Positions 30,929-55,654 of a stretch of 64,000 bases of DNA are shown here, one piece after another. The notes below the pieces were generated by a model that saw only the letters and a program-made list of their open reading frames with translations, searched no databases and was not told the origin of the DNA. Within the stretch, counting starts at the first letter, position 1. Each line of letters begins with the position of its first letter. Both the position numbers and the translations under genes were made by a program. Source of the stretch: a bacterium (GTDB taxonomy: Bacteria > Auribacterota > UBA3054); NCBI GenBank assembly GCA_017963805.1, contig JAGCTE010000035.1, forward strand, positions 11,839 through 75,838. Direction: 5' to 3'.

Positions 30929-33900
30929 ATGAATGACAGTACTCTGAAAAGACCTTCGGGGGTGGCTTTGCTGGCTGTGCTGACCGTTCTGACGGTCCTC
31001 TCCCTTTTAGCAGCCACCTTCGCTTCCATGATGACCATGGAGGAGCAGGCGGGAAGCATCAGTCTTAACCGCTCGCAGTCCGATATGCTCGCCCAATCCG
31101 CCATCGAGCACGTTTACGGCCTGCTGCGCCAGGACTCCATCGACAGCCCGGAATACGACGGCTACGACGAATCCTGGTCCCAGACTTTCAAGCCGCGCCA
31201 GGGTGAGGAGCGCGTAAACGTCGAGGGCGACAAGGGCGGCGATTACGCCTGGGCCCGCTGGATCTACGTCAGGGACAACACCGGGCGCCCGATCGGCCGC
31301 TACGCGGTCATGGTCGAGGACGAGCACGCCAAGATCAACCTTCACACGGCGACCGCTCTCGGCTCCAAGCAGCAGAACGAAGGCTTCGGAACTTTCGAAG
31401 CGATGCTGACGGACGGCGACAAAAGGGGACTGCCTTTGACCATAGAAGCCGGCAAGCGCATTTTGAAATACCGCTACGGCAGGGACGAAAGGCCCGGCCA
31501 GGCCAACGTTGACGACAACCTTACCGTCACGCAGTACGGCAGCGACTCCATCGACAACAACGCCAACGGACGCTACGACGAAGACGGCGAAGGCGTGGAC
31601 GAGCCCGAGGAATACAATCCCAGCCGCCTTGTCTGGGACGACATGGCCTTCCAGTCCCTTAGGGAAGCCTTGGCGGTCGCCATGGGCGGCGAACCGACCA
31701 GCCTTTCCCAGGTCAACGCCTTCAAGCACCTCGCCACGCTTTGGAACACTTCGCAGGAGCTCTACTATGAAAAGTCCGCGAAGGCCCTGAGGCGCTCCCT
31801 TGACATAAACCACGCGGAACTAAAGCAGCTCAGGCGCGCCCTGAGGAACGCCAACAACGAGTCCGCTTTCGAGCCTTCCTCCTCCAAAATGCGCGCCCTG
31901 CTCGTCAACCTTTTGGACTACACCGACGAGAACCATACGCTCACGACCGTCGACAGCACCTACGGCGTGGAGTCGATCTGCTTCAACGAGATCATGGCGC
32001 ACGACGGCAGCTGGATCCGTGAGACCGACTGGTGCGGCTGGGGATTCCCGAGCCAATCCGGAAGCGGCGCCTCCGTCCCGGAGCACGTGCTTTCCGCCAA
32101 CCAGTTCTACGGCCACCGCTACAAGGACATGGGCAGCGTTTTCCGCTGGCGTTTCAGCAATGTCAAAAAACGGGGCAACGACTGGGAACTGAAGATCGAA
32201 AGGCCGCGCCGCCAGGCCCCGCGCTTCGACGAGTTTGTCAACACTGAAGTGAAAGGCTGGTATGAGGACCAGTGGAAGGGGGCGACCTGCATAGTCTACA
32301 ACGCCAAGAGCGAGAGCAAGGGTTTCTCCATTACCAGAAGCCAGGGCGGAAAAGGGCGCGAGTTCACCATAAAGGGCTACAGCGAAGGCAACAAATTCAT
32401 GGAGGACGTTTCCTCCAACCTCGTCAACGCCACCGTCAAGCTATACAGCACCTGGACGCACGACGGCGCCATGTGGTGCGACGACCCGATGCAGACGGAG
32501 ATCTTCTACTTCCGCCCGCTGAACCGCAAGCAGGAGAAGTATTATTACCGCGTCTACAACGCGAGCCAGGCTTTCATTCCCTCCATAGGCTACGGAAAAT
32601 CCAGCGTCAGGGAAATGGACATGGACGGCATTCCCGCCCGCTACAGCGTCCAGCAGGAGGAAAAGGACAAGAAGAACCACTACCTCCTGAAATACCCCTA
32701 CAAGGAAGGCAAGGCCCAGAAGCCTTCCAAGGAAGGCTACATCGAGGTGGTCGTGACTTCTTCCAAGAAATGCCGCCACTCCGGTTCCGGCAGGAAAGGC
32801 AAGAATATCAACTACAGCGACGCCATGTATTTCATCAGGCCCGATATCGTCGAGCTCATCAACATCTCCTCGTACCCCATAAGCCTGCGCAACTGGCAGG
32901 TCGTGGTCAACACAGGTTTGGAAGCCGAGCTTCTTGCCACCGTTGACAAGGCGGACCACTACAGCAAGGCCCGCAGCGGCTTCTACGAAGACCCGAACCC
33001 GATAATAGAGCCGAACGGATATTTTTACCTGACCAACAACAGGGAGATCTTCGACATCGAATACTGCGGCGGCAACGGCAACTACGGCCGCAGCCAGAAG
33101 ACGGTCATCCCGGTCTACGAGCTTCCCGACGAGGACTGGGGCATCCTCTACGACGTGACGAAGGTCAAGGGCGACTACATCACGGTCTCCGGCGCCAACT
33201 GGCATCACGACCAGCTGGAAGGCGAGCTTATCGAGTTCGTGTCCGACCGCCAGCCCACCGCCAAGGCGGATATTCCCAACGGCATGATCAAGTATGTTTA
33301 CGGCAACAACAGCAACAGGCTTGACCTTAACGGCAGCGACCCGGCCGGCAGCGGATTGAAAGTCGGCGACAAGATCAGGGTCAGGGGCCTTCCGCGCCAG
33401 GGCGGTTTCGTCTCCTTCACGCTTAAGAACGAATACGGCCAGGTCGCGGCCAGAACTACGGAATACGGCTCCGTCGACGAAGAGGAATTCGGATATTCAA
33501 CCGAAAAGGACGACCCGGCCCACTACACCTGGAAGAAACACTCGAAGCCGACTTTCGGCGGCACCCTAAGGGAAGCCGAGAGCCGCAGGATGAGAAGCCA
33601 GTCGAAGAACAACCAGACGCACATCAAGAACGCCGGCATGGCGAACATCTCCGAAATACAGAAGATCAAGACGGGCGACGACTGGGAGAACGTCGGCGGC
33701 GGCTCCAGGTCCGATCTGAAGACCATGAAAGCGGTCGGCAAATATTTCACGACCGCCGGCATCAGGCTCGACGCGGAGGAGGAAGGCGTTCATCTTTCCG
33801 GCTGGGCTCCCGCTTTCGGAAAGGTAGTTTCCGCGAACGGCGACGTTATGTCCATAGAGGGCGTCAGCTGGGAACCTGACACCTGGAAAGGGCACACGCT

Positions 33901-34882
33901 GCGCGTCATGACAGGCGCCCAGAGAGAGGAGAAGATCCCAATCGTCAGCAGCTCCAAGACCGGCATTACCGTCGACGGCCTGACCTCTCCTTCCGAACTG
34001 CAGCTGAAGCTCAAGAAAGGCGACATGGTGAGCGTCGGCCCGGGCTACGCCACGCCCTTTTACTACGCCACGAAAGACGGCGAGGCCGGCGAATGGGAAT
34101 GGCGTGACAAAGGCCTTGAGAAGGCCGACTACGGGCTTTACATCTTCGGGTTGAACGACGCCATCGACACGACGGAATTCCTCGAGGAGAACCACAACGC
34201 CGAGATGGAAGTCTTCATCTTCAACTACGAGACCGGCGAATACGACGCCCTGCCTCTCGGTTCCGACGAACTGAGGAACGCCGCGGACGATCCCTATCTC
34301 GTCGGCTCCAACAGGAAGCGCATCCGCTACGACAAGAACGACAGGGCTTACTGCGGCATTATCCACGCCTCTCACATCTCCGCCAAAGGCGGCATCAAAG
34401 TGAAGATAATACCCCATAACCTTTCCGGCGTCGACTCCTCCGGCAAGGCCTGGCTCGATTACGTTTACCTTGCGCCGGGCCCGACGGCCGGCCGCATAAA
34501 CGTCAACACCGCCGAGGAACGCATCCTGACCTCTCTTAAAGGCATCTCGCCGGCTCTGGCCCGCAACATCGCCAGAGGCATCGACAATTACGGCAGCGCT
34601 TCTTTGAAACCTTATAAGAACTCCACGGATCTTCTGAACGTCAAGGGCTTCACGCCCGAGATCTACGGCCCGATCGCCAACCTTGTGACCACGAGGAGCG
34701 ACCAGTTCAGGGTCCGCGTCATAACCCAGACCATCACGAAACTCTCCAAGGACGACTTCTTCAACGAGAATGCCGGCGACAGGATCACCTCGCAGTCCGC
34801 CATCGACATGATAGTCGACCGCAGCGACGCCCTTGGCGAGGACGGAGCAAATTTCCGCGTTATTTCCCGCGAATTCGAATAA
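30929..34882 (+). CDS. giant GspK/T2SS-K-like pseudopilin-family protein (1317 aa)
   Basis: Prepilin-like N-terminus (KRPSGVALLAVLTVLTVLSLLAATFA, no Glu5, as in GspK). Early DEHAKINLHTA motif (GspK DExxKINxN-like). C-terminal GRINVNTAEERILTSLKGISPALARNIARGI helix-hairpin-helix region. A ~900-aa insert of unknown domains lies between. A promoter-like TGGTAAAAT sits upstream. Confidence 0.7.
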   Translation: MNDSTLKRPSGVALLAVLTVLTVLSLLAATFASMMTMEEQAGSISLNRSQSDMLAQSAIEHVYGLLRQDSIDSPEYDGYDESWSQTFKPRQGEERVNVEGDKGGDYAWARWIYVRDNTGRPIGRYAVMVEDEHAKINLHTATALGSKQQNEGFGTFEAMLTDGDKRGLPLTIEAGKRILKYRYGRDERPGQANVDDNLTVTQYGSDSIDNNANGRYDEDGEGVDEPEEYNPSRLVWDDMAFQSLREALAVAMGGEPTSLSQVNAFKHLATLWNTSQELYYEKSAKALRRSLDINHAELKQLRRALRNANNESAFEPSSSKMRALLVNLLDYTDENHTLTTVDSTYGVESICFNEIMAHDGSWIRETDWCGWGFPSQSGSGASVPEHVLSANQFYGHRYKDMGSVFRWRFSNVKKRGNDWELKIERPRRQAPRFDEFVNTEVKGWYEDQWKGATCIVYNAKSESKGFSITRSQGGKGREFTIKGYSEGNKFMEDVSSNLVNATVKLYSTWTHDGAMWCDDPMQTEIFYFRPLNRKQEKYYYRVYNASQAFIPSIGYGKSSVREMDMDGIPARYSVQQEEKDKKNHYLLKYPYKEGKAQKPSKEGYIEVVVTSSKKCRHSGSGRKGKNINYSDAMYFIRPDIVELINISSYPISLRNWQVVVNTGLEAELLATVDKADHYSKARSGFYEDPNPIIEPNGYFYLTNNREIFDIEYCGGNGNYGRSQKTVIPVYELPDEDWGILYDVTKVKGDYITVSGANWHHDQLEGELIEFVSDRQPTAKADIPNGMIKYVYGNNSNRLDLNGSDPAGSGLKVGDKIRVRGLPRQGGFVSFTLKNEYGQVAARTTEYGSVDEEEFGYSTEKDDPAHYTWKKHSKPTFGGTLREAESRRMRSQSKNNQTHIKNAGMANISEIQKIKTGDDWENVGGGSRSDLKTMKAVGKYFTTAGIRLDAEEEGVHLSGWAPAFGKVVSANGDVMSIEGVSWEPDTWKGHTLRVMTGAQREEKIPIVSSSKTGITVDGLTSPSELQLKLKKGDMVSVGPGYATPFYYATKDGEAGEWEWRDKGLEKADYGLYIFGLNDAIDTTEFLEENHNAEMEVFIFNYETGEYDALPLGSDELRNAADDPYLVGSNRKRIRYDKNDRAYCGIIHASHISAKGGIKVKIIPHNLSGVDSSGKAWLDYVYLAPGPTAGRINVNTAEERILTSLKGISPALARNIARGIDNYGSASLKPYKNSTDLLNVKGFTPEIYGPIANLVTTRSDQFRVRVITQTITKLSKDDFFNENAGDRITSQSAIDMIVDRSDALGEDGANFRVISREFE

Positions 34883-34901
34883 CCAACCTTTATCTTACAC
34901 G

Positions 34902-37028
34902 ATGAAAAAACTCGGCCTTTTATTTCTGCTGATATTTTTTGCCAGTTTCAATTCCTACGCCCTGCGTATCTACGGCCTTTACATGGCCGAGGCGAACGTC
35001 AGGGACGACGGCAACCGTTACTACCAGGACACGATGTTCTCGACTTATCCTCCGAGCGCCGCGTTCAACGGCTGCGTGGACGTACTTGTCATGAAAGGCT
35101 GGTATTGTTTCGGCAACAACTGGGAATACGAACCCGTTGACAGCAACGTCCTCGACAAAGGACAGAAGGCCCAGTACGAAAACATGGGCAAGTGCGGCGG
35201 CGTAACGATAAAGAGGCTGGATCCCAACGTCTACGATCAGCTGAACGGCATGACGGGGCAAACTGCCGAAGCCGGCACTCCGGAAGGCTACATCGGCGCC
35301 GCCAACATGCGCCGCACCCTGCTCTTCAAAAACGCCGTCCTTGAAGAGGGGACGAACTACTTCACGATCGTCTGCCCCCAGGCCAACGAGCTGATGTACA
35401 GCGCCATGGTCGGCTTGTATCTTTCTGAAAAAGACACCTGGAGCACGGGCGTCATCCCGCCGGAAGGCACGGAGCCCGACCTTTGCGCCAAGGAAGCCGG
35501 CGCCGGCACCCAGGACATGGAAGGGGAGTACGTCTGCGGCGCTCCCAATCCCAGGAAGGACGTGTCGTATTTCAACCAGGCGAACATAAAGATGGAGCAC
35601 CCGACGCTCTACTGCGTGAAAGGCGATTACAGGATAAGCATTCCCTTCTTCTACATGGCCGGCACCAACGGCGACGAAGTGAATCCCGACGGCCTTACCT
35701 CGCCTCCGTCTCCCGGCTGGGTGGCGGAAGGCAGCCTTGATCCCGGCTGGGCGCTTGCCCACACCTCCGGAAACGAGGTCGCCTACCTTGCCGTAGTCGT
35801 CTCCAAAGAGAGCACGGTTCCTTCCCTTTCGACGCCTTCCGTCGTGATCCCGCCCCTGAGCTCCGACGGCTGCGTTCTTATGGAGAACCTCGGCGCCGGC
35901 AGTTTCAGCTACACCGCCAGCACCACGAGCAGCTGGCTCACGCTGGACAGCGAGACCGCTTCCGGCAGCGTCAGCATGCAGCAAAAGATCCAATTCACCG
36001 TCAACAGAAACGGCCTCGCTCCCGGCCGCTATGTCAGCACGATCGACATTGACCTCGGCAGTTTCGGAGTGATGACGGCCAAGGTGACGATGATCGTGGA
36101 GAAGCCCAAGACCGGCGCCGTGCGTTTGAAAGGATTGTACATTATGAGCAACGACGGCGAGACGCCCTATTACCAGGACACCATGATCAAGTCGCTGACG
36201 CCCTCTTACAATTTCGACGGCGGCTGCATGGATATCCTTCTCGCGAACGGGATCTACCTTTTCGGCAACGAGGCTGATTTCGAACTCTGCCCCTATTACG
36301 ATTACTTGGTCGCGAACGCGCTGGACCCCGGACGCCCCGCCGCCTATGACGAGGCCGGCAGCTTCCAGGTCACGAACGTTGTCTATTGCCTGCAGCCCGA
36401 GAGATACGACCTGATCAACCAGGCTGTCGACAACGGCGAGCATCCCACCGCCTCCTCGATCTCCGAATACGTGAAGTTTTCCGGCCTTACCAAAAAGGAG
36501 CTCGACTGCTACCTTAATGTTGGCACCAACCGTTTCACGCTCATTCTTCCGGAAGCCAGCGAATTCGAATCGGAAGAGATGCAGCTGGGCCTTTTCCTTG
36601 GAGAGAGGGTCGCGAGCGGCGCGAAACCCGATCTGGCGGCCAGCGACAGCGAGATACAGTTCGACGCCGAGGGCAAGCTTTACGCCACCTACACCACGGA
36701 AGACCGCACTTACAAATACCCCTTGAACGAATCGGATGTTTTCACCAGATCCACGCTTCAGTGCGACGTTGGCGACTATCATCTTACGCTTACGAAATTC
36801 TTCATCGCGGGCGTCAACAACGAATTCATGAATCCCAGGGGCATGACGAGCCCGGCTGCTCCCGGCTACGTCGCTTCTGGCGGCGACACGACCACGGCCT
36901 GGCCGGTGCACGCTTCGCCGAAGACGGCGCTGGGATATTTTGAAGTGGTGGTGACGGGCGTGCCGGAGCCGGCGGCGCTGGGGTTGCTGGCGCTTGTGGC
37001 GCTGGCGGCTTTCCTCCGCAGGAAGTAA
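34902..37028 (+). CDS. PEP-CTERM sorting-domain surface protein with internal duplication and a BACON-like beta domain
   Basis: ATG 34902. Signal peptide MKKLGLLFLLIFFASFNSYA. Two copies of a ~300-aa module (LRIYGLYMAE...YYQDTM... and VRLKGLYIMS...YYQDTM...). C-terminus VTGVPEPAALGLLALVALAAFLRRK is a canonical PEP-CTERM. Confidence 0.75.
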   Translation: MKKLGLLFLLIFFASFNSYALRIYGLYMAEANVRDDGNRYYQDTMFSTYPPSAAFNGCVDVLVMKGWYCFGNNWEYEPVDSNVLDKGQKAQYENMGKCGGVTIKRLDPNVYDQLNGMTGQTAEAGTPEGYIGAANMRRTLLFKNAVLEEGTNYFTIVCPQANELMYSAMVGLYLSEKDTWSTGVIPPEGTEPDLCAKEAGAGTQDMEGEYVCGAPNPRKDVSYFNQANIKMEHPTLYCVKGDYRISIPFFYMAGTNGDEVNPDGLTSPPSPGWVAEGSLDPGWALAHTSGNEVAYLAVVVSKESTVPSLSTPSVVIPPLSSDGCVLMENLGAGSFSYTASTTSSWLTLDSETASGSVSMQQKIQFTVNRNGLAPGRYVSTIDIDLGSFGVMTAKVTMIVEKPKTGAVRLKGLYIMSNDGETPYYQDTMIKSLTPSYNFDGGCMDILLANGIYLFGNEADFELCPYYDYLVANALDPGRPAAYDEAGSFQVTNVVYCLQPERYDLINQAVDNGEHPTASSISEYVKFSGLTKKELDCYLNVGTNRFTLILPEASEFESEEMQLGLFLGERVASGAKPDLAASDSEIQFDAEGKLYATYTTEDRTYKYPLNESDVFTRSTLQCDVGDYHLTLTKFFIAGVNNEFMNPRGMTSPAAPGYVASGGDTTTAWPVHASPKTALGYFEVVVTGVPEPAALGLLALVALAAFLRRK

Positions 37029-37056
37029 GCGCCGCTTAGCTTTTGCTCAGAAAAAA

Positions 37057-37111
37057 ACGACCCCTCTTGATTTTACTTCGTAACAAAATCTTGAGGGGGT
37101 TGTTTTTTTCT
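37057..37111 (+). terminator. rho-independent terminator after the PEP-CTERM gene
   Basis: acgacccctcttgatttt-acttcgtaac-aaaatcttgagggggttgttttttt: a 14-bp stem with one 2-nt mismatch, then a T-run. Confidence 0.55.
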
Positions 37112-37124
37112 TCGCTCACTAACG

Positions 37125-37333
37125 CGATTGTTGTCTCGGACGAAAAGTTATGTTCCCTTGGCGAACCGCATTCGCTGAGTTCGCTTACGGGAGCATAACT
37201 TTTTTCGTCCTCGACAAAACTCAAGTTGGACGCTGGAAAGCCGCAGTGCGAGCTAGGCACATACCCCTAAGCGAACTCACGGAGGACGCAAATCAAGGCC
37301 ATGCGCGCGTAGTCCGTGAGCGAGGGGTATGTG
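37125..37333. repeat. two adjacent long imperfect palindromes (hairpin I 37125-37204; hairpin II 37238-37333)
   Basis: Hairpin II has perfect 21-bp arms (gcgagctaggcacatacccct / aggggtatgtgcctagctcgc), extended by ctcacgga / tccgtgag. Hairpin I pairs cggacgaaaagttatg with cataacttttttcgtcc and has a nested gcgaac/gttcgc pair. Confidence 0.6.
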
Positions 37334-37424
37334 CCTAGCTCGCGCTGTAAGTGTTACTCAGCGAAGCCTGTTTGCCAAGGGCGCATGCCTTTTGCGAAGC
37401 GGAAAAACAATTGAGCGGAAAGGC

Positions 37425-39092
37425 TTACTTCAGCACTGCGCCTTGGCTCGCGCTCGTCGCATGCTTTTGATAGCGCGCCATCCACCCGAAGTTCAGGCGC
37501 GGTTCGGGCGGCTGCCATTCGGCTTTGCGCTTAGAGATCTCTTCAGGGGAGAGCTCAGCTTCCAGCTTCTGCGCGTTGATGTCTATGCTGATCATGTCGC
37601 CTTCTTTCAGAAGGCCGATGAGCCCGCCCGAGGCCGCTTCCGGGCTTACGTGCCCTATGCAGGCGCCTCTCGTGCCGCCGGAGAAGCGGCCGTCGGTGAT
37701 CAAAGCCACTTTGTCGCCCAGACCCTGGCCCATGATGTAAGAGGTGGGGGCGAGCATTTCCTGCATGCCGGGGCCGCCTTTGGGGCCTTCGTAGCGGATG
37801 ACGACGACGTCGCCTGGTTTAACTTTGCCGGCCAAAATTCCTTCGCAGGCTTCTTCCTGGGATTCGAAGATGACGGCCGGGCCGCGGTGCGCCATCATTT
37901 TGGGATCGACGCCCACGGATTTGACGACGGCGCCTTCGGGGGCGAGGTTGCCCCAGAGGACGGTGAGCCCTCCTCTTTTCGCGTAAGCGTTGGAGAGTTC
38001 CCTGATGCAGGCTTTGTCCTTGCTTTCCTTGCCCTTTATGTTTTCGCCCAGGGTCTTGCCGGTGACGGTCGGGCAGTCGAGGTTGAGCGAGCCTTCTATT
38101 TTGCTGATCTCGCAAAGGATCGCGGAGACTCCGCCGGCAGCGTCCACGTCCTCCATGTGATACGAGCAGGAGGGACTGACTTTGCAGATGGTGGGGACCC
38201 TTTTGCTGACCTCGTCGATGCGCTTGAGGTCGAAGCCTAAGCCCGCTTCCTTGGCGATGGCAAGGGAGTGCAGGATGGTGTTCGAGGAGCCGCCCATGGC
38301 CATGTCGAGGGTAAGGGCGTTCTCTAGGGAAGCGTCGGTTATTATGTCCTTGGGGCGCAAGTTTTCCTTTACCATTTCCACGATGCGGCGCCCGGCGGCT
38401 TTCCAAAGCTCCTTCCTTTCAGGGTAGACGGCGGGGATGGAGCCGTTGCCGGGGAGCGCGATGCCTAAGGCTTCGCAAAGGCAGTTCATGGAGTTGGCTG
38501 TGAACATGCCGGAGCAGGAGCCGACGCCCGGGCAGGATTCGCATTCGACTTCCTCGAGCTGGGCGTCATTTATGATATTCTGGCTGCGGGCGCCGACGGC
38601 CTCGAAGATGCTGATGAGGTCGAGGGCTTTCTTTCCGTCCTTACTGTGGCCGGCCAGCATAGGTCCTCCGGAAGCGAAGATGGTCGGGATGTTGACTCTC
38701 AAAATGCCCATCAGCATGCCGGGGACGATCTTATCGCAGTTGGGAATGCAAATAACGCCGTCGAAGCAGTGCGCTCTTAACATCGTTTCTACGGAGTCGG
38801 CTATGATCTCCCTGGAGGGCAGGGAGTATTTCATGCCCTCGTGCCCCATGGCGATGCCGTCGCAGACGCCTATGGTGTTGAATTCGAAGGGGACGCCGCC
38901 GGCTTCCTTGATCGCTTCCTTTACTATTTTGCCGACTTCCTGAAGATGGGCGTGCCCGGGGATGATGCCGACGTAAGAATTGCAGACGGCGATGAAGGGC
39001 TTCTTTAAGTCCTCGCGGCTGACGCCGCAGGCATTGAAGAGCGCGCGGTGCGGGGCGCGTTCCAGACCGACTTTCACAGAATCGCTTCTCAT
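37425..39092 (-). CDS. ilvD: dihydroxy-acid dehydratase
   Basis: Full-length IlvD/EDD family ([24 protein letters not shown], Fe-S cysteine ligands); 555 aa. Confidence 0.95.
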
Positions 39093-39239: not shown

Positions 39240-42200
39240 ATGAAACGAGTTTTCGGAAATACATCCGCCCCTAGGGGCGTGGCGCTTTTGATGGTACTGA
39301 CGGTCCTTACCGTCCTTTCGATCCTTTCCGCGACTTTCGCGACTTTCATCGGCTTGGAGAGCCAGTCCGGCGCCATAAGCGTCGGGCAGACGCAGTCGGA
39401 CATGCTCGCTCAGTCCGCCCTGCAGCACGCTTACGGCCTTCTCAGGGAAGACTATTACAATTCCTCGGCCTACGACGATTACAGCGAATCCTGGTCCCAG
39501 ACCTTCAAGCCCAAAAAAGGGGACCAGGCCGTCGATATGGACGGAACTTACGGCGACAAGACGCACATGTCGCGCTGGATCTACGTCAGGGACGCCAACG
39601 AAAGGATAATCGGCCGTTACGCCGTCATGGTCGAGGACGAGCTCGCGAAGATCAACGTCAACACCGCGACCGCCCTGAGCAGGAAAGAGCAGAACGAGGG
39701 CTTCGGCACTTTCGAAGTGATGCTGACCGGCGAGAACGGCAAAGCCGGCCTGCCGATCTCCCCCGAGGCTGGCAAGAACATTCTTTCCTACCGCTACGGC
39801 CGCGACCAGAAACCCGGCCAGGCGAACGTCGACGACAACCTGAACGCCTCCCAGTACTCTTCGGACGAGATAGACAACAACGCCAACCTTCTCGTGGACG
39901 AGAGGGACGAGGGCGTGGACGAGCCGGAGGAATACAACCCCGACCATCTGGTCTGGGACGACAAGGCTTTCCTTAACATGAGGGAAGTCATTTCGCTTAT
40001 CGCTCCCAACAAGCAGAACCTCAGCCGTTCTCTGGAGAACGCCATCAAGCACTACGCGACCATCACCTCCCGCTCCCAGGAAAGCTATTTCGACGAGACG
40101 TCCGGAAAGGTTTTCCGCCAGCTGAACATCAACAACTCCGACATGAAGCAGCTGAGAAGGGTGATGCGAAACTCCAATCTGGAATACAATTTCGAGAATT
40201 CTTCGACCGCCCTGCGCGAACTGGTCGTCAACATGGCGGACTACACCGACGAGAACCACGTTTTGTCCACCATCGAGAGCACGTACGGCATCGAGGCCGT
40301 CTGCTTCAACGAGATCATGGCGCATGACGGCAGCTGGATCGTGGAGACGGACCACCAGGGCTACGGCAGGAAAGACGAGAACAGCTACCACGTGATGTTC
40401 GCCAACCGCATTTACTCCGGCAACTGGGACTACGACCGCACGGAGTTCATCCCCGGCTCCATGCGCACATACTGGCGCATAAAGGATGTCAGGACGTCCG
40501 GGAACAGGGCGGAAATAAAACTTGACAATCCCATGTACACGAGCGGCGACTACAACACCTTCATGAAAGCGGAGGTCGACGGCTGGCTGAAGGACCAGTG
40601 GAAGAACGCCACGTGCATTATTCATCACGTGACAGGGCAAAGGTCCGCCGTGAGCAAGGGATTTGAGATCGAAGGCAACTCCGCCGGCAATTCCAAGAGC
40701 ATAACCATAAGGGTGTCGGGCGGTCTGGAATCATTTTTGGACGGCGTCAAGACCAACACCGCCAACGACAGGATAAGCATCTGGTCGCACTGGATGTGCT
40801 CAGCGGCTGTCTGGACCGACCGCAAGGAGCAGACGGGCCTTTTCTACACCAGGCCGAACACTCCGAAACAGGAAAAATTCTACTACCTCATCTACAGCGC
40901 CAACCAGGCTTTCAAAAACAACTGGTGCGGTTTCAAGCGCTCCGACCTGAGGGAAATGGACATGGACGGAATTCCTTCCAAGTATTCCGTCACGCAGGAG
41001 GACAAGGATAAACGCGGCAACTACCTGCTGCGCTACAAGTACAAGGACGGCAAGCCGCAGAAACCGAATCACAACGGCTTCCTTTCGCTTTATCTGACTT
41101 CTTCCAGAAGGTGCAAGAAGTCCGGCGCGAACCAGTCCGGCAAAAACGTCAACAGCAGCGACGCGCTCTACTTTTTCCGCCCCGACATCGTCGAGCTCAT
41201 CAACATCAGCTCCGCCCCGATCTCCTTGCGGAACTGGTCGGTCGTGGTCAACACCGGCGTGGAGTCGTACGACCTTGCGCGGATAGACAAGGCCGAGCAT
41301 TACAGCAAGGCTTACGGCGGCTATTACGACGATCCCAACCCCCTGATCGCCCCCGGCGGCTATTTCTACCTCACTTCCAACAAGCAGATCTTCGACATCG
41401 AATACTGCAAGGGAACGGGCGGCTACGGCCACAACAAGGAGAACGAGATCCCGGTCTTTGAGCTTCCCGCGGACGACTGGGGCATCCTGTACGACGTGAC
41501 AAAAGTTTCCGGCTACAACTACGGGCACAGCTACATTACCGTGACGGGCGCCGACTGGAAGAAGGACCAGCTTAAGGGCGAGATCATCGAGTTCGTCTCC
41601 ACGCGTCACCCCAGAGGCGGCTACGACGCGCCGAACGGCATGTTCAAATACGTTTACAACAACACTTCGCACGTCATCGACATCGGCGTGGGCGACGCTG
41701 TCAACAGCGGTTTGGAAGCCGGCGACCAGATCCGCGTGAGGGGCCTGCCGCGCCAGGGCGGTTTCGTCTCCTTCACCTTGAAGAACGAGTACGGCCAGAT
41801 CGCCGCCCGCACGACGGAATACGGCAGCCTTACCAAGGACGAGATCGGTTTCTCAACGGAAAAATCCGACCCGGCCCACTATATCTGGCACTCTGTGAGC
41901 GCCCCGACTTTCGGCGGCACAATAGACAAGGCCAAGAGCCGCGCTTTCAGGAAGCACAGCTTAACGCACATCAAGAACAACCATCTTGCCAACGTCGGCG
42001 AAGTTCTCAACGTAAGGACGGCCGACTCCTGGTCGACCGTCGGCACGAAAGGCCGCGGCGGCGTAAAGACCCTGAAGGCCTTGAGCAAATATTTCACCAC
42101 TTCCGGTATCCGCCTTGACAGCGAAGAGGAAGGCGTTCACCAGAGCGGCTGGAAAGCGGCTTTCGGCGAAGTGAGCCACGCCAACGGCGACAACATCAGC

Positions 42201-43232
42201 GTCAAGGAAGCCGCCTGGTCGCCGAACGCCTGGACGGGACAGACGATGCGCGTTCTCTCCGGACCTTTCAAGGGCGAGAAGATCCCGATCAAGTCCAACA
42301 CCGGCAACGGCGTTTTGGTGGAAGGGCTCTCGGCTCCCAACGAGAAGCAATTGAGGCTCAAGAAAGGCGACCTTATCAGCGTCGGCCCGGGATACGCGAC
42401 GGCCATGTACTACACCGACAAGGAAGGCGACGAGGGAATTTGGGAATGGGAGAACAAGGGGCTTCTGAAGAGCGACTACGGTCTCTACGTCTTCGGGCTC
42501 AACGACTCCATAAAGACCACCGAGTTCCTCGAGGAGAACCACAACGCCACAATAGAAGTTTACGCTTACAATTTCGCCAAAGGCGAATACGACAGGCTTC
42601 CTCTGCCGGACGACAGGATGCGCATCACAAGCGACAATCCCTACCTTATGGGCAGCCAGACCCAGCGCTTGCAGATCGACAAGAACGACAGAGTCTACTG
42701 CGGCCTGATCCACGCCGCGCACATTTCCCCGAGGGGCGGCATCCGCCTTAAGATCGTTCCCCACAACCTGAGAGGCCAGGAAACTTCCGGCAAAGCCTGG
42801 TTCGACTACGCTTTCCTCGCTCCCGGACAGACTAGCGGGAAAATAAACATCAACACCGCCACTCCGCGCGTTTTAGCCGCGCTTAAGGGCGTGACGCCGG
42901 CTATCGCGGCGGCCATCGAGAAAGGCTTAGACCGTTCCGGCAACAAGATCAAGCCCTACAAGAACACCGCGGACATCCTCGACATCCAGGGCATGACGCC
43001 GGCGATCTTCAGCGAGATCTCCAACCTTATCACCGTCAGGAGCGACCAGTACCGCATCAAGGTCATGGCCGATTCCGTTGAGAAAGTGACGAACGACCCG
43101 CAGTTCGACGAAGCGAAGGGCGACAAAGTCATCGCGCGTTCCATCATGGACGTCATCGTCGACAGAAGCGACCTGGCGCAAAGCGCGGAAGACAACGGCA
43201 AGGCCCAATTTAAGGTGATTTCCAAGGAATAG
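39240..43232 (+). CDS. giant GspK/T2SS-K-like pseudopilin-family protein (1330 aa), paralog of 30929..34882
   Basis: N-terminus APRGVALLMVLTVLTVLSILSATFA. DELAKINVNTA motif. C-terminal GKININTATPRVLAALKGVTPAIAAAIEKGL. About 60-65% identity to the first copy along the whole length. TTGTAAAAT -10-like upstream. Confidence 0.7.
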   Translation: MKRVFGNTSAPRGVALLMVLTVLTVLSILSATFATFIGLESQSGAISVGQTQSDMLAQSALQHAYGLLREDYYNSSAYDDYSESWSQTFKPKKGDQAVDMDGTYGDKTHMSRWIYVRDANERIIGRYAVMVEDELAKINVNTATALSRKEQNEGFGTFEVMLTGENGKAGLPISPEAGKNILSYRYGRDQKPGQANVDDNLNASQYSSDEIDNNANLLVDERDEGVDEPEEYNPDHLVWDDKAFLNMREVISLIAPNKQNLSRSLENAIKHYATITSRSQESYFDETSGKVFRQLNINNSDMKQLRRVMRNSNLEYNFENSSTALRELVVNMADYTDENHVLSTIESTYGIEAVCFNEIMAHDGSWIVETDHQGYGRKDENSYHVMFANRIYSGNWDYDRTEFIPGSMRTYWRIKDVRTSGNRAEIKLDNPMYTSGDYNTFMKAEVDGWLKDQWKNATCIIHHVTGQRSAVSKGFEIEGNSAGNSKSITIRVSGGLESFLDGVKTNTANDRISIWSHWMCSAAVWTDRKEQTGLFYTRPNTPKQEKFYYLIYSANQAFKNNWCGFKRSDLREMDMDGIPSKYSVTQEDKDKRGNYLLRYKYKDGKPQKPNHNGFLSLYLTSSRRCKKSGANQSGKNVNSSDALYFFRPDIVELINISSAPISLRNWSVVVNTGVESYDLARIDKAEHYSKAYGGYYDDPNPLIAPGGYFYLTSNKQIFDIEYCKGTGGYGHNKENEIPVFELPADDWGILYDVTKVSGYNYGHSYITVTGADWKKDQLKGEIIEFVSTRHPRGGYDAPNGMFKYVYNNTSHVIDIGVGDAVNSGLEAGDQIRVRGLPRQGGFVSFTLKNEYGQIAARTTEYGSLTKDEIGFSTEKSDPAHYIWHSVSAPTFGGTIDKAKSRAFRKHSLTHIKNNHLANVGEVLNVRTADSWSTVGTKGRGGVKTLKALSKYFTTSGIRLDSEEEGVHQSGWKAAFGEVSHANGDNISVKEAAWSPNAWTGQTMRVLSGPFKGEKIPIKSNTGNGVLVEGLSAPNEKQLRLKKGDLISVGPGYATAMYYTDKEGDEGIWEWENKGLLKSDYGLYVFGLNDSIKTTEFLEENHNATIEVYAYNFAKGEYDRLPLPDDRMRITSDNPYLMGSQTQRLQIDKNDRVYCGLIHAAHISPRGGIRLKIVPHNLRGQETSGKAWFDYAFLAPGQTSGKININTATPRVLAALKGVTPAIAAAIEKGLDRSGNKIKPYKNTADILDIQGMTPAIFSEISNLITVRSDQYRIKVMADSVEKVTNDPQFDEAKGDKVIARSIMDVIVDRSDLAQSAEDNGKAQFKVISKE

Positions 43233-47938: not shown

Positions 47939-49579
47939 ATGAAAAAAGGATTGATCTTTATGGCGCTCTGCCTCTGCTTGGCCGCCGTAACGTCTTTTTC
48001 CGCCACCGTCTGGACCAGCGACGTCGCCTTCGACGGCACGCCGACCTCTGACACAGTAGTTCTTAAACCCACCGACAACATCGGCTACAGCACCGCTCTT
48101 GTCGGCGGTGAGTGGAAATGCGTGACTATCAAAGTTAACGATGTGACGGATCCTACCGTTCAAATACCTAATAGCGGTACCATTTTTCAAACTCCTAACG
48201 AAAATGTAGAATTTGAAGGCTCTTTTACCTGGAACTACATTTCCTTGAATCTTCCCAAAACTGACACTTACAAGATAGAGGAGACAGCAGAATCTACTTC
48301 AGATTATAATATAACCTCTCGCTATTTCACCATTGTCCCCGAACCTACGGTATTGCTTTTTGCTGGTATCCTCGGCGTGTTCTTCCTCCGCCGCCGCGCG
48401 AAAGCCCTTCTGGCGGTCCTAGCCGCGGTTGCCCTTTGCTCCTTCAGCGCTAATGCCACGACCACGGTCTCTTCGGTTAACTGCTTACAACTTTTCCCAG
48501 TCCATAGAGAAGTAGTCATCAATTACACCATTACCACCGACTATGAAGGCGACCTCAACATCAAGTTCTACGGCAGCACGGACAAGGGCGCCACGACCTT
48601 TGATCTGGCCGACAAGGGCACTCTGACAAAGGACGGCGCCAGCGGTAAGATCACTACCGGCTCCGGCACCTACAAGACCATCTGGACGCCCGATTCCACG
48701 CTGAACAACGTTACCGGCACCATCAGGATCGGTGTGGAAGCGGAAGAGTACGTTCCTCCCAAGACCTACATGGTCCTTGATGTGGATCACAACACGGTGA
48801 CTTATCTCGACGATCCTCCCTCCGGCGGTTTCAACAACAATACCTACAAAGGCACCAAGATGGCTTTCAGGTACGTTGAGCCCGGCACCTTCACTATGGG
48901 CAGCCCGAACAATGAATTAGGACATAAATCTGACGAGACCCAACATTCAGTTACCTTGACCAAGGGCTTTTATATCGGCATCTTTGAAGTCACGGAATAT
49001 CAGTACGACCAGGTGAATTACAGTCCTTTAAGCATGTACAAGCCGAAAATAAACGTAGGTTATTCCGATATTCGTGGTTCCAGCGCCGGGGCGGGCTGGC
49101 CCGCCAGCAGTGCTGTGGACAGCGGTTCTTACCTTGGAAAGCTGCGTGCCGCTACCGGACTTAATTTCGACTTGCCCACGGAAGCCCAGTGGGAGTACGC
49201 CTGCCGCGCCAACACTACCACGGCTCTCAACAGTGGAAAGAATCTGTCTAGCCAGTGGGATGATTGCCCTGAAATGGACGAAGTCGGATGTTATGACGGC
49301 AATTATATGTCGCTTGTGGAAGGCGGCCGCTTTAATGCCAATGCTTGGGGAATATATGACATGCACGGCAACGCTATTGAACACTGCCTTGACTGGTACT
49401 CCGCGGATCTTGGCAGCGCGGCGGTGACCGATCCCAAAGGCCCCAGCGCGGGAAGCGTAAGAGTGGTGAGAGGCGGCGGCGCCCAAAGAGACGCGTGGTA
49501 CTGCCGTTCGGCCTGCCGCCAGGGGAACGCTCAAACCAACCAGGAATACGGCTTCCGCATTGTTCTGGTGGTCGAATGA
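47939..49579 (+). CDS. fusion protein: N-terminal secreted domain with internal PEP-CTERM motif, second signal-like helix, C-terminal FGE/SUMF1-fold domain
   Basis: Signal peptide. VPEPTVLLFAGILGVFFLRRRAK at residues ~133-156 is directly followed by ALLAVLAAVALCSFSANA. The FGE-fold hallmarks are GTFTMGSP, LPTEAQWEYACRA, RVVRGGG...YCRSACRQG and GFRIVLV. A TGGTAGAAT -10-like element lies upstream. Confidence 0.75.
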   Translation: MKKGLIFMALCLCLAAVTSFSATVWTSDVAFDGTPTSDTVVLKPTDNIGYSTALVGGEWKCVTIKVNDVTDPTVQIPNSGTIFQTPNENVEFEGSFTWNYISLNLPKTDTYKIEETAESTSDYNITSRYFTIVPEPTVLLFAGILGVFFLRRRAKALLAVLAAVALCSFSANATTTVSSVNCLQLFPVHREVVINYTITTDYEGDLNIKFYGSTDKGATTFDLADKGTLTKDGASGKITTGSGTYKTIWTPDSTLNNVTGTIRIGVEAEEYVPPKTYMVLDVDHNTVTYLDDPPSGGFNNNTYKGTKMAFRYVEPGTFTMGSPNNELGHKSDETQHSVTLTKGFYIGIFEVTEYQYDQVNYSPLSMYKPKINVGYSDIRGSSAGAGWPASSAVDSGSYLGKLRAATGLNFDLPTEAQWEYACRANTTTALNSGKNLSSQWDDCPEMDEVGCYDGNYMSLVEGGRFNANAWGIYDMHGNAIEHCLDWYSADLGSAAVTDPKGPSAGSVRVVRGGGAQRDAWYCRSACRQGNAQTNQEYGFRIVLVVE

Positions 49580-49610: not shown

Positions 49611-51302
49611 ATGTTAAAAAGCAAGTACCTTCTGGCTTTAAGCCTCTGTTTCGCCGCGGCGGCGCTTTTCGCCGGCGAGGCTGAACTCTGGTCCGGCTCT
49701 TTTACTTTCAAGGGCCAAGAGATCAATCAAGAAGAACCGCTTCTGCTCAAGACGAGCGACAAGATCGCTTACTCCAGCATTCTGGCTAAAGGCGATCCTG
49801 AGGCTCTCAAGATCGATGTGGTGGACGTCAACGATCCTTCCATTAACGTGACGCTTTTCAACAACACCAGCGGCAGGGCCGTGGAAGGCTCCTTCGTTTG
49901 GGATTACACCCAGCCGCAGTTCGACGACTTCAACCAGTTCAGCAGCTACGTTATCACCGAAACGGTGACCGCCAGCCAGGAGACCAAAGCTTATCCGCGC
50001 ACGATCAACCTCGTTCCGGAACCGGCCGTGCTGATCCTCATCGGCATCGTCGGTGCTTTCTTCCTGCGCCGCCGCGCCAAGGCTCTGCTCGCTGTTCTGG
50101 CTCTGGCCGCGCTCTGCGCCTCTAACGCCTCCGCTTTCTGCTATGTCACGAAAGTCGACTGCCTGCAGCTCTTCCCGTTCTCCAGGACCGTCGTCATCAA
50201 CTACACGGTCGAGTCCGACAGCACGGAAATTTTCAACGTCAAGTTCTACGGCTCCACCGATGACGGCGAGACGGTCTTCGACCTGTCTGAGAAAGGAACG
50301 CTTGCCAACGACGGCGCCAAAGGCTTACTCATTAGCGCCGGCGACCACAAGACGCTCTGGACTCCCGACGAGAGCTTCTATGAGACCGATACCGATAACA
50401 TGAAGGTTAAGGTCAAGATAGAGGAAAGAGACGGAATGCCTTATTACGTCTATGATCTTGAGACCGGAGAATACACTTACGTCGACAAGGATCCTTCCGG
50501 TGAATGGTCCGACGAATACAAGACCACCAAGATGGTCTTCGCCTACGTCCCGGCCGGTTCCTTCACCATGGGCAGCCCTGCCGGTGAAATTGGTCGTCAG
50601 GCTAACCAGGAAATCCAGCACACCGTCACCATCACCAAGCCTTTCTTCATGGGCGTGTTCGAAGTGACGCAGAAGCAGTACGAGCTTATTGCCGGCTCCA
50701 ACCCCTCTGAGAGCAAGGGCGACAATCGTCCCGTTGAGCAGGTTTCTTACGACATGATCCGCGGTTCTGTGAAGGGCGCACAGTGGCCCGCTAACAACGA
50801 AGTGGACGAAGATTCCTTCCTTGGCAAACTCCGTGCTCAGACCGGCAAAGTTTACGATCTGCCCACGGAAGCCCAGTGGGAGTACGCCTGCCGCGCTACT
50901 ACGGGAACGGCGCTCAACACCGGCAAGGATCTTACCGACGAGTGCCAGTGCCCCAATATGGATGAAGCTGGCCGCTATGCTTGGGACACGAACGATGGCA
51001 AGGGCGATATCTATTATCGTAAGCACACCGTCGTTGGCTGTTATCTGCCCAACCAGTGGGGCCTCTACGACTGCCACGGCAACGTCGCTGAGATCTGCCT
51101 TGACTGGGCCTATACCAGGTCGAGCGCTGATCCGCAGGTCGACCCTGTCGGTCCCGCCACGGGCACCACGCGTATGATTCGCGGCGGCGGCAACATCGAT
51201 GACGCCGAGTACTGCCGTTCCGCTACCCGCGGATCGAGTGTTTGGCCTACCACCGCCAACTACAACGTCGGCTTCCGTCTGGTCGTTCCCTTCGAAGACT
51301 AA
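49611..51302 (+). CDS. paralog of 47939..49579 (internal PEP-CTERM + FGE/SUMF1-fold domain)
   Basis: Same architecture: LVPEPAVLILIGIVGAFFLRRRAKALLAVLALAALCASNASA, GSFTMGSP, LPTEAQWEYACRA, MIRGGG...YCRSATRG, GFRLVV. Confidence 0.75.
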   Translation: MLKSKYLLALSLCFAAAALFAGEAELWSGSFTFKGQEINQEEPLLLKTSDKIAYSSILAKGDPEALKIDVVDVNDPSINVTLFNNTSGRAVEGSFVWDYTQPQFDDFNQFSSYVITETVTASQETKAYPRTINLVPEPAVLILIGIVGAFFLRRRAKALLAVLALAALCASNASAFCYVTKVDCLQLFPFSRTVVINYTVESDSTEIFNVKFYGSTDDGETVFDLSEKGTLANDGAKGLLISAGDHKTLWTPDESFYETDTDNMKVKVKIEERDGMPYYVYDLETGEYTYVDKDPSGEWSDEYKTTKMVFAYVPAGSFTMGSPAGEIGRQANQEIQHTVTITKPFFMGVFEVTQKQYELIAGSNPSESKGDNRPVEQVSYDMIRGSVKGAQWPANNEVDEDSFLGKLRAQTGKVYDLPTEAQWEYACRATTGTALNTGKDLTDECQCPNMDEAGRYAWDTNDGKGDIYYRKHTVVGCYLPNQWGLYDCHGNVAEICLDWAYTRSSADPQVDPVGPATGTTRMIRGGGNIDDAEYCRSATRGSSVWPTTANYNVGFRLVVPFED

Positions 51303-51326
51303 GACATAAGGAACCATCGCTGAAAA

Positions 51327-51361
51327 GACGGCCGACCGCTTTTGCGGCCGGCCTTTTTTTG
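51327..51361 (+). terminator. GC-rich hairpin terminator (family member 1)
   Basis: gacggccgaccgc-tttt-gcggccggcc followed by a T7 run. Confidence 0.65.
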
Positions 51362-51403
51362 TTAAAATATAAGCGTATCATTACAATCCACCCAGGGAAA
51401 GAT

Positions 51404-52249
51404 ATGAGAAAGTTTGTAGTTTTTGCGCTTTTCGCGGCGCTGTCGGTTTGTGGTATGCTTTTCGCGGACAATGATCTTAGCGAAAACGGTTCGGTCGTAA
51501 TAAAAAAGGACACGCTCGTCTATAAGGGAAAAGCCTTGAAGCCCGCCGTGAAAGTTTATTGCGGTGGGAACAAGCCTCTGAAGCAAAAGAAGGAGTATAC
51601 GCTTTCCTTTGAAAACAACGATCAGATCGGGACAGCCAGAGCGGTGGCGACCGGCGCGGGGAAATATAGCGGCCAGGCGGTTGGGGAATTCACGATCAAT
51701 CCGGGCCCGGTGAAAATAAAGAAACTTAAAAGCATCGAGTCGGGATTCGAGGCTAGTTGGAAGCCCTCCTCGGGCGTAGACGGCTATGAGCTTCTTTACA
51801 CCGCTCCCGACGAGTCCCAGTCCGGCAGCCTTTTGGTGGCAGGCGAGCAGTCCTCAAGCGTCCAGGTCACGAGGCTCGTGCCGAACACGACCTATCAGGT
51901 GTGTCTGCGCTCCTACAAGAAAGTGGACGGCAAGAATTATTACTCCGCCTGGAGCAAGGCCAAGAAATTTACCGTGGCGAAAAGCAAGGATCCTGACGAC
52001 GGTGGTGACGACGATATTGATGACGGGCCGGCTTTCGCGGAAAAATACATGGTCGTCGACCTTGCCAGCGGGTCCAGCGATCCGGTCACGGATCCGGTAG
52101 GACCTGCCGAAGGTTATTTACGCATCCTTCGCGGCGGCAGCTACTATTTCTATCCGAAAGAAAGCCGCTCGGCTTACCGGAGCCGCTATAGCCGCACCGA
52201 CAACTACAACAACGACTCCGGCATCCGCGTAGTTCTGGTTTTGGGATAG
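51404..52249 (+). CDS. secreted Fn3-like protein with only the extreme C-terminal piece of an FGE/SUMF1 domain (internally deleted paralog)
   Basis: ATG 51404 (MRKFVVFALFAALSVCG). The YMVVDL motif is followed directly by SSDPVTDPVGPAEGYLRILRGGSYY...SGIRVVLV. Compared with the two upstream paralogs, about 200 aa of FGE core are missing. Confidence 0.65.
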   Translation: MRKFVVFALFAALSVCGMLFADNDLSENGSVVIKKDTLVYKGKALKPAVKVYCGGNKPLKQKKEYTLSFENNDQIGTARAVATGAGKYSGQAVGEFTINPGPVKIKKLKSIESGFEASWKPSSGVDGYELLYTAPDESQSGSLLVAGEQSSSVQVTRLVPNTTYQVCLRSYKKVDGKNYYSAWSKAKKFTVAKSKDPDDGGDDDIDDGPAFAEKYMVVDLASGSSDPVTDPVGPAEGYLRILRGGSYYFYPKESRSAYRSRYSRTDNYNNDSGIRVVLVLG

Positions 52250-52270
52250 AATTGGCTTCTGGCGATCCAA

Positions 52271-52310
52271 AGCGGCCGGCCGCGTTCCGCGGCCGGTCGC
52301 TTTGCTGTTT
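52271..52310 (+). terminator. GC-rich hairpin terminator (family member 2)
   Basis: gcggccggccgc-gttcc-gcggccggtcgc, then ttt. Confidence 0.55.
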
Positions 52311-52312
52311 AA

Positions 52313-52400
52313 GTCTTAAAAACGTGTAAATTTGGCCTTGTCTTACCTCTTAAAAACGTGTAAATTCAGCCATCTCTGACCTCTTAAAAACGTGCAAGAG
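52313..52400 (+). repeat. three direct repeats phased at exactly 34 bp (ctcttaaaaacgtgtaaatt core) upstream of a promoter
   Basis: Copies start at 52313 (gtcttaaaaacgtgtaaatt), 52347 (ctcttaaaaacgtgtaaatt) and 52381 (ctcttaaaaacgtgcaagag). Confidence 0.8.
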
Positions 52401-52402
52401 TA

Positions 52403-52431
52403 TTGACTTTTTAAGTTGTAAATACTACAAT
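52403..52431 (+). promoter_or_regulatory. sigma70-like promoter TTGACT-17-TACAAT driving the AAA ATPase gene
   Basis: ttgact at 52403-52408, a 17-nt spacer, tacaat at 52426-52431, RBS aggaga at 52443-52448, ATG at 52454. Confidence 0.55.
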
Positions 52432-52453
52432 AGTCGCAAAATAGGAGATAATT

Positions 52454-53797: not shown

Positions 53798-53810
53798 AGA
53801 ACGATCGTAA

Positions 53811-54134
53811 TATTGCAAATTCAACCAGGGAGCCGGCCGAGGCGGTTACAGCGAGGGGCACACCGCGGTTGGTTTTTATATTCCGAATTCCTGGGGCCTC
53901 TACGACATGCACGGCAACGTTTGGGAGATGTGTCTGGATTGGTGGGGGGACCCCGGAAGCTATACCAGCGATCCGGTCACGGATCCGGTGGGCGCCGCCG
54001 AAGGTACCAGCCGCCATATGCGCGGCGGTTCACAAGCCAACCCTGCGGGCGAATGCCGATCGGCGTACCGAGCCGGCAACGGCCCGAATGACCGCTATGA
54101 ATTCGTCGGCTTCCGCGTAGTTCTGGTCCCTTAA
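53811..54134 (+). pseudogene. 3' remnant of an FGE/SUMF1-fold paralog (no start; about 105 C-terminal residues)
   Basis: The frame opens at 53811 and reads NQGAGRGGYSEGHTAVGFYIPNSWGLYDMHGNVWEMCLDWW...SDPVTDPVGAAEG...ECRSAYRAG...GFRVVLVP. This aligns with the C-termini of the 47939 and 49611 proteins. The 24-nt string agcgatccggtcacggatccggt is shared with 52085-52108. Confidence 0.65.
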
Positions 54135-54162
54135 AGCGAAGTTGAGCGTTGAGCGCATTGAA

Positions 54163-54232: not shown

Positions 54233-54257
54233 TAAATAATACACGGTGGGTGAAAAC

Positions 54258-55646: not shown

Positions 55647-55654
55647 GGTAATTA

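Follow-up and report, generated by a model that had tools for sequence, protein, structure and literature searches.

A probable exported PEP-CTERM-type protein with a duplicated, unannotated module, encoded beside a giant GspK-like gene in a ruminant-gut bacterium

We examined a 64-kb stretch of bacterial DNA (hereafter the window; 64,000 nucleotides of contig JAGCTE010000035.1, assembly GCA_017963805.1, positions 11,839 to 75,838 of the forward strand) and, within it, a gene at 34902-37028 which the original prediction had described as encoding a PEP-CTERM surface protein. The gene product is probably an exported cell-envelope protein of a diderm gut bacterium, carrying a PEP-CTERM tail and two copies of a ~285-residue module that are separated by a BACON/Ig-like spacer. 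The gene and the parts of its product are as follows.

34902..37028, plus strand: PEP-CTERM protein gene, 708 aa plus stop, with the ATG at 34902 and the stop codon at 37026-37028.
34902..34961, plus strand: predicted Sec-type signal peptide, aa 1-20, MKKLGLLFLLIFFASFNSYA with L as the next residue; assigned from sequence and hydropathy, with the cleavage site placed by eye.
34959..35816, plus strand: module copy N, aa 20-305, beta-rich, with YYQDTM, FGN and GTNxFT motifs; defined by self-alignment and an AlphaFold2 (AF2) model.
35817..36110, plus strand: central BACON/Ig-like beta-sandwich, aa ~306-403; PF19190 at 21.2 bits (below the cut-off), Foldseek matches 3zmr and 2ys4.
36111..36959, plus strand: module copy C, aa 404-686, 31-34% identical to copy N.
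36960..37025, plus strand: PEP-CTERM sorting tail, aa 687-708, made up of VPEP, a transmembrane (TM) helix and RRK; TIGR02595 at 19.5 bits.

The N-terminus, MKKLGLLFLLIFFASFNSYA followed by LR, contains a hydrophobic core that spans aa 3-24, as judged by hydropathy and inspection, and no lipobox cysteine was seen on inspection of this N-terminal sequence. At the other end the protein terminates in VPEPAALGLLALVALAAFLRRK, just as the original prediction gave it, which reads VVVTGVPEPAALGLLALVALAAFLRRK when written through to the stop codon. The VPEP motif occupies aa 687-690 of 708 and is followed by AALGLLALVALAAFL and then by RRK and the stop; the hydropathy segment of the tail spans aa 682-705, and the AF2 model places a helix at aa 691-707. 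When aa 687-708 were scored against the PEP_CTERM hidden Markov model (HMM) TIGR02595, the tail passed, its 19.5 bits exceeding the curated cut-off of 16, as the original prediction, which had taken the C-terminus for a PEP-CTERM sorting signal and had named this model as the check, would have it. The corresponding Pfam model, PF07589, gave 20.6 bits against a cut-off of 20.7; this model is reported to recognize just 22% of the instances detected by TIGR02595 (Haft et al. 2006, PMC1569441). We found that P688, E689 and P690 are invariant in an alignment of 13 homologous sequences reaching down to 32% identity, and that all of these keep a TM segment and a basic end despite drift in the sequence. 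Among isolated homologue tails (43-45 aa), 7 of 10 scored at least 16 bits on TIGR02595. These features agree with the description of PEP-CTERM proteins as signal-peptide-bearing, highly diverse proteins from diderm producers of exopolysaccharide (EPS) (Haft et al. 2006, PMC1569441). Taken together, these data make it very likely that this is a genuine PEP-CTERM-type sorted protein. The MYXO-CTERM signal (TIGR03901) was also considered and was ruled out, as the tail scored 15 bits against a cut-off of 20 and there is no Cys in aa 686-708.

The passenger portion of the protein is dominated by an internal duplication. When the two halves of the protein were compared by BLASTP, aa 20-301 of the N-terminal half aligned to aa 406-685 of the C-terminal half with an E value of 9e-36, well beyond chance (31% identity, 50% positives), so that the ~300-aa duplication noticed in the original prediction is borne out. 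Both copies share the motifs LxGLY, YYQDTM, GC[VM]D, FGN and GTNxFT, and a closing YxEVVV strand. The module had also been described as cysteine-containing; both copies indeed carry GC[VM]D, but in an alignment of 24 module copies the Cys was kept only in the close rumen clade, and cysteines were therefore dropped as a defining trait of the module. Copies N and C are 34% identical, and either copy is 23-39% identical to the modules of distant proteins. Since the two copies are as diverged from each other as from the modules of distant proteins, a recent duplication is ruled out and the duplication must be old. The full-length AF2 model reached a pLDDT of 75.8, with the middle domain as its most confident region.

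The module is rare and structurally unfamiliar. Among 1.84 billion representative proteins, searched exhaustively, about 16 carry it, and a profile search of a 5.8-billion-protein set with the module alignment returned one fragment only. No Pfam family was matched by any of the 24 module copies, and a profile of these copies matched nothing among PDB sequences. An AF2 model of the module built from the 24-copy alignment (pLDDT 94, pTM 0.93) comprised ~14 strands and three short helices; a Foldseek search with this model found nothing significant in PDB (best E 0.12, TM-score at most 0.16) and no match in BFVD. The residues invariant in the 24 copies are, in module numbering, D24, D41, G77, N96, L128, G131, N133, F135, T136, E144, P173 and G245. 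Conserved positions are mainly D, N, E, Y and G, a composition that would fit the binding of a metal or a sugar.

Each carrier holds one to three copies of the module, which almost invariably forms the final domain ahead of an (I/V)PEP-TM-basic tail. Elsewhere it follows a C25-peptidase-like region (P0035, a weak Pfam hit; the related P0024 gave no Pfam hit), a HELGH/CARDB region (P0031) or a He_PIG Ig domain (P0067), and in P0021 and P0023 it is preceded by a long unannotated N-terminal region. P0024 and P0035 combine a C25 (gingipain)-like N-terminus and Pro/Thr-rich linkers with the module and with a different hydrophobic tail that lacks PEP, so that the module is not strictly tied to exosortase sorting. 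Modules that are appended to other domains and repeated in this way are typically accessory, serving for binding or as a stalk, and not catalytic cores. Judging from this domain context and from the residue composition, we take binding or adhesion, to a glycan or to matrix, and not catalysis, as the likeliest role of the modules, and give it about even chances.

The domain between the two modules, which had been described as a BACON-like beta domain, resembles that family both in sequence and in its model. BACON_2 (PF19190) scored 21.2 bits over aa 329-380, below the Pfam cut-off of 25, and the equivalent domains of the relatives P0015, P0016 and P0018 scored 26.8-39.7 bits, past the cut-off. 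The model of the middle domain superposed on 3zmr, the BACON domain of a B. ovatus GH5 enzyme, over 101 columns with a root-mean-square deviation of 2.9 Å (Foldseek E 9e-5); the other compact matches were PapD-like Ig folds, including 2ys4. In the search of 1.84 billion representatives, about 160 of 179 matches covered the middle domain only, usually as one of many repeats.

The gene is conserved and is under purifying selection. Fifteen clusters at 90% identity match the protein over its full length at 31-100% identity, all of them from the ruminant gut and unnamed or annotated as 'hypothetical', and the six species-representative genomes that carry the gene are metagenome-assembled genomes from the gastrointestinal tracts of goat, water buffalo and yak. 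In comparison with orthologues of 63-69% identity, for which the rate of synonymous substitution (dS) is near saturation, the ratio of nonsynonymous to synonymous substitution (dN/dS) was 0.24-0.30 for the whole gene, 0.15-0.27 for module N, 0.23-0.29 for module C and ~0.48 for the middle domain. This conservation, together with the whole-gene dN/dS, rules out a spurious open reading frame (ORF).

The surroundings of the gene, and a further pair of genes referred to below, are laid out as follows.

27218, plus strand: RRF.
27805, plus strand: triple-STAS protein.
29012, plus strand: NadE.
30929..34882, plus strand: giant GspK-like #1, 1317 aa; NF037980 over aa 10-160 (E 3.8e-15, 56 bits) and HHH_3 over aa 1189-1252 (32.8 bits).
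34883..34901, plus strand: 19-nt spacer between the stop codon of #1 and the PEP-CTERM start, with no terminator; orthologous gaps are 11-20 nt.
37049..37111, plus strand: intrinsic-terminator-like hairpin (-30.5 kcal/mol, z = -7.1), preceded by an A-run and followed by a U-run.
37425..39092, minus strand: ilvD (dihydroxy-acid dehydratase), convergent (PF00920 E 4.6e-138, PF24877 E 6e-79).
39240..43232, plus strand: giant GspK-like #2, 1330 aa, 55% identical to #1 over the full length.
Downstream of giant #2, plus strand: iPGM, FKBP and flavorubredoxin.
47939-49579 and 49611-51302, plus strand: tandem paralogues with an FGE-sulfatase domain (PF03781), 44% identical.

Both giants have a pseudopilin-like N-terminus, ...RPSG/VALLAVLTVLTVLSLLA (KRPSG in #1), with a hydrophobic segment of the RG/VALLxVL type. 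Their first ~150 residues matched GspK of the type II secretion system (T2SS; NF037980) with E values of 1e-15 to 1e-17, although the scores of 56.2 and 63.9 bits fall far short of the required 130. Each carries a weak lamin-tail domain in mid-protein and a GspK-like helix-hairpin-helix (HhH) at the C-terminus. The model of Verru_Chthon cassette protein A (TIGR02600) gave 47.6 and 26.5 bits against a cut-off of 332, and NCBI annotates both giants as 'helix-hairpin-helix domain-containing protein' (MBP5627262.1, which is #1, and MBP5627265.1). As their homology to GspK is confined to the N- and C-terminal parts, we consider 'GspK-like' a fair name and 'GspK' not.

The original prediction had placed the PEP-CTERM gene in a three-gene block between these two paralogues. 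The gene is indeed flanked by both, but it is not contiguous with #2: the terminator-like hairpin, ilvD on the opposite strand and the own upstream region of #2 intervene. In the orthologous loci L001-L003 (69% identity), moreover, ilvD and #2 are not found downstream, and #2 itself has no PEP-CTERM partner, the next gene being the housekeeping gene iPGM. There is thus no contiguous three-gene block, and the operon-like arrangement is a pair with #1 only. Judged by the sequence features of the locus, the PEP-CTERM gene is probably co-transcribed with GspK-like #1, the terminator directly behind it ending the unit.

Between the PEP-CTERM gene and ilvD, which converge, lies an intergenic region that is itself unusual: it measures 396 nt, compared with ~125 nt in the orthologous locus L004. 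Positions 37121-37393 are packed with nested inverted repeats, having 25-nt arms at 37244-37268 and 37323-37347 (96% complementary), 38-nt arms at 37143-37180 and 37356-37393, and 15-nt arms at 37143-37157 and 37189-37203. No second copy of this stretch was found within the window, and Rfam gave no match. It may be a small inserted palindromic element, similar to miniature inverted-repeat transposable elements or repetitive extragenic palindromic elements, or a structured RNA.

Several observations weigh against our interpretation of the protein. The PEP-CTERM HMM scores are marginal, the Pfam model falling 0.1 bit short of its cut-off, and whole-protein scans with TIGR02595 reported only 1 of the 13 homologues, namely the copy in the window; comparison of this result with that for the isolated tails indicates that the 24-position model is marginal for such proteins. 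No match to exosortase/EpsH was found by Pfam and NCBIfam scans among the substantial ORFs of the 64-kb window, as the original prediction had already stated for the window. Nor was one found in the 2 kb past the left end of the window, where TIM is located, or among 10 polytopic membrane ORFs in ~1 Mb of related loci, these being LptF/G, GT4, MlaE, Wzx-like, DsbD and similar proteins. PEP-CTERM proteins are usually several per genome, and this is the single C-terminal PEP tail in the window. Finally, the binding function proposed for the modules has no backing from any structural or sequence homologue.

On the other hand, there is indirect support for the view that the organism reads PEP motifs, from the invariant PEP in the homologues, from segments in the FGE-sulfatase paralogues and from the diderm/EPS gene content. 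The window encodes LpxA, LpxC, LpxD, OmpH/Skp and MurJ, genes of an outer-membrane host, and a cluster of GT2 and GT4 glycosyltransferase, methyltransferase and epimerase genes at 4132-9820. Weak Verru_Chthon matches, one homologue labelled 'Chlamydiae bacterium' and the gene content suggest that the host probably belongs to the PVC group. The two FGE-sulfatase paralogues each contain an internal VPEP-TM-RRRAK segment (reading ...IVPEPTVLLFAGILGVFFLRRRAK and ...LVPEPAVLILIGIVGAFFLRRRAK), and the presence of these two further PEP-TM-RRR segments in the window argues that the genome has machinery reading the PEP motif.

The architecture of these paralogues deserves description in its own right. 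Each has a signal peptide, a domain of ~110 aa, the internal PEP-CTERM-like segment, a second hydrophobic stretch (ALLAVLA..LC..) that resembles a signal or lipoprotein peptide, and then PF03781. The location of a PEP-CTERM motif in mid-protein is unusual, and might be explained by a gene fusion, by a hairpin of two TM helices or by a polyprotein that can be cleaved. A shorter fn3-containing ORF at 51242-52249 ends in a similar motif, ...GIRVVLVLG. At the head of the GT2/GT4 cluster we noted an XerC/D-type tyrosine recombinase (3272-4060, plus strand; Phage_integrase E 3e-52), an arrangement kept in the related locus L021; it may be an invertase or a regulator of surface-polysaccharide genes.

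The lack of an exosortase in the window, the left flank and the related loci searched, and the closeness of the HMM scores to threshold, are also what one would see if the C-terminal segment were a membrane anchor only, with the protein facing the periplasm and the PEP being coincidental or vestigial. We regard this as highly improbable, since P-E-P never changes, either in homologues down to 32% identity or in the unrelated proteins encoded beside giant genes, although the remainder of the tail is variable, since the tail always lies at the extreme C-terminus with a basic end, which is the full PEP-CTERM architecture (PMC1569441), and since the FGE-sulfatase segments speak for PEP-reading machinery. 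For the passenger, a different alternative is that the duplicated module is a surface-displayed catalytic domain, for example a new enzyme that degrades or modifies glycans. In line with this, D24, D41, D66, E144, D186, D201, N96 and N133 are invariant or nearly so across 24 copies that are 23-54% identical, the protein of the rumen clade offers no other candidate for a functional domain, and the window and the related loci are rich in GH3, PL8, GH127 and FGE-sulfatase genes. Catalysis nevertheless appears unlikely to us, as relatives carry the module, in up to three copies, appended to other putative catalytic domains, no His, Arg or Lys is conserved among the copies, and Foldseek finds no similarity to known enzyme folds.

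A third alternative concerns the neighbour: the PEP-CTERM protein could be the dedicated partner of the giant GspK-like pseudopilin, serving as its cargo, tip adhesin or anchor. Such a partnership would extend the explanation that we prefer, in that a pilin-like protein held in the inner membrane by its N-terminal helix could help to present an exosortase substrate or to export it across the outer membrane. The two genes lie on the same strand with a 19-nt gap and no terminator between them, a strong terminator follows the pair, and the giant/PEP-CTERM pair, with gaps of 11-20 nt, was recovered in all the close relatives that were looked at (L001-L006, 63-69% identity; L014, 57%; L022-L026; L044). 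However, the whole RRF-STAS-NadE-GspK-PEP neighbourhood is syntenic throughout the clade, and conservation of the pair is not specific because the upstream housekeeping genes are equally syntenic. More distant giants (33-49% identity) adjoin PA14, Laminin_G_3 and PATR proteins, PL8 lyases and unknowns, and not this protein; several of these neighbours end in PEP-CTERM tails, often on the same strand. We therefore surveyed 76 metagenomic loci of the giant family, which fell into 62 clusters at ≥90% identity, counting complete neighbour genes of at least 100 aa with crude gene calls and a regex-based tail detector. PEP-tailed genes made up 8 of 87 genes (9%) at positions ±1 from the giant, 5 of 70 (7%) at ±2 and 8 of 224 (3.6%) at ±3 or farther, and all 21 of them were on the strand of the giant, as compared with 259 of 381 neighbours overall (68%). 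The difference between adjacent and far positions (odds ratio 2.7) was not significant (Fisher p = 0.08), and the association is weakened because tandem PEP genes of a single locus do not count as independent and because of the crude gene calls and the regex tail detector; we regard it as suggestive. The giants are also 'orphans', as GspG-J-type prepilin genes were not found nearby, and no ORFs of the GFTLIE prepilin type were seen near giants in the window or in the 62 related loci. Against a dedicated partnership, paralogue #2 has no such partner, about 49 of the 62 giants have no PEP-tailed gene within two positions, and no GspK-like gene lies beside those of the distant module proteins P0016 and P0018 (the contig of P0017 holds only that gene). 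A literature search for a link between PEP-CTERM proteins and pseudopilins found nothing relevant. On this evidence the partnership is conceivable but rather doubtful. The wider proposal, that giant orphan GspK-like pseudopilins form part of the route of exosortase substrates to the surface in PVC-type diderms, with the pair as a recurrent module whose cargo has an undescribed fold, is a long shot.

In the course of this survey, the giant GspK-like family (~1300-1450 aa) was recovered as 52 clusters by word search and as 62 lineages in metagenomes of rumen, sediment, lake and hot-spring samples, with the N-terminal pseudopilin helix, the lamin-tail-like domain and the C-terminal HhH all kept. 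Its genes are sometimes in tandem (L092), and genes of large signal-peptide proteins (PA14, Laminin_G_3, PL8 lyases) often follow them. Elsewhere in the window, a stretch at ~52000-56000 has a GC content of 0.49-0.51, compared with ~0.57 in the rest, and holds an AAA_14/DUF4143 ATPase (52454-53797) and a Schlafen AlbA_2/HATPase_c_4/HTH protein (54246-55646). Lying beside tRNA-Lys (58247-58322), it may represent a small islet of horizontal origin or with a role in defence.

From the preferred interpretation, that of an exosortase-sorted envelope protein, we infer a route in which knowledge of the family (PMC1569441) and the gene context supply the later steps. The signal peptide would direct the protein across the inner membrane via Sec, and the C-terminal helix would then anchor it there temporarily, with RRK on the cytoplasmic side. 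An exosortase, presumably encoded elsewhere in the genome, would cleave or transfer the protein at PEP, so that the passenger would end up exposed at the cell surface or within the EPS layer, where the two modules, kept apart by the BACON-like spacer, might bind a glycan or matrix. Expression would probably be coupled to that of giant GspK-like #1.

To our knowledge, PEP-CTERM proteins are common yet almost uncharacterized, and their passage across the outer membrane once an exosortase has cleaved them is not understood. Their passengers are notoriously diverse, and as a sorting substrate the protein described here is accordingly ordinary. The locus offers a compact and well-conserved PEP-CTERM example from abundant uncultured bacteria of the ruminant gut, and the 285-aa domain, having neither a Pfam entry nor a detectable solved homologue, could be defined as a new family and is a candidate glycan- or matrix-binding module. 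That PEP-CTERM genes are co-oriented with, and often beside, giant GspK-like genes in several unrelated lineages is a statistical lead; should whole-genome analysis bear it out, a pilin-like component would be implicated in surface display by way of exosortase, and should it fail, what remains is an ordinary surface protein of the PEP-CTERM type whose passenger is unannotated.

In comparison with known systems, the giants share with T2SS GspK (NF037980, PF03934) the N-terminal pseudopilin segment and the C-terminal helix-hairpin-helix, and with Verru_Chthon cassette protein A (TIGR02600) a similar size of ~1300 aa. They differ from both in scoring far below the respective cut-offs, and from GspK in having ~1000 extra residues, including the lamin-tail-like domain, and in that no GspG/H/I/J, secretin or ATPase genes lie near them in the window and the 62 related loci. 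The central domain resembles BACON domains (PF13004/PF19190; for example the N-terminal domain of the Bacteroides ovatus GH5 xyloglucanase, 3zmr) as a beta-sandwich of ~95 aa whose model superposes on 3zmr, but it scores 21.2 against 25, resembles PapD-like and Ig folds equally well, and occurs as a single copy serving as a spacer between two modules. The modules recall tandem carbohydrate-binding modules (CBM) and lectin-like or adhesin modules, being mostly beta-strand with termini suited to tandem insertion, repeated one to three times, appended to enzymes and Ig domains, and rich in conserved D, N, E and aromatic residues with an L..G.N.F[TS][LIV] strand motif; as they have no sequence-profile or Foldseek match to any of these, the likeness is one of analogy only.

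The closest comparison is with the substrates of the PEP-CTERM/exosortase system (EpsH, XrtA-type). The present protein differs from these in that its host comes from the ruminant gut whereas the original survey found mostly soil and sediment organisms (PMC1569441), in that its cognate exosortase was not located in the window, the left flank or the related loci, in that its gene is paired with a giant pilin-like gene and does not lie within an EPS locus, and in that its passenger consists of an unannotated 285-aa module duplicated in tandem. It resembles them in having a signal peptide, PEP, a TM helix and a C-terminal basic cluster, in a passenger with little homology to known proteins, and in a diderm host with glycosyltransferase genes of the EPS type.

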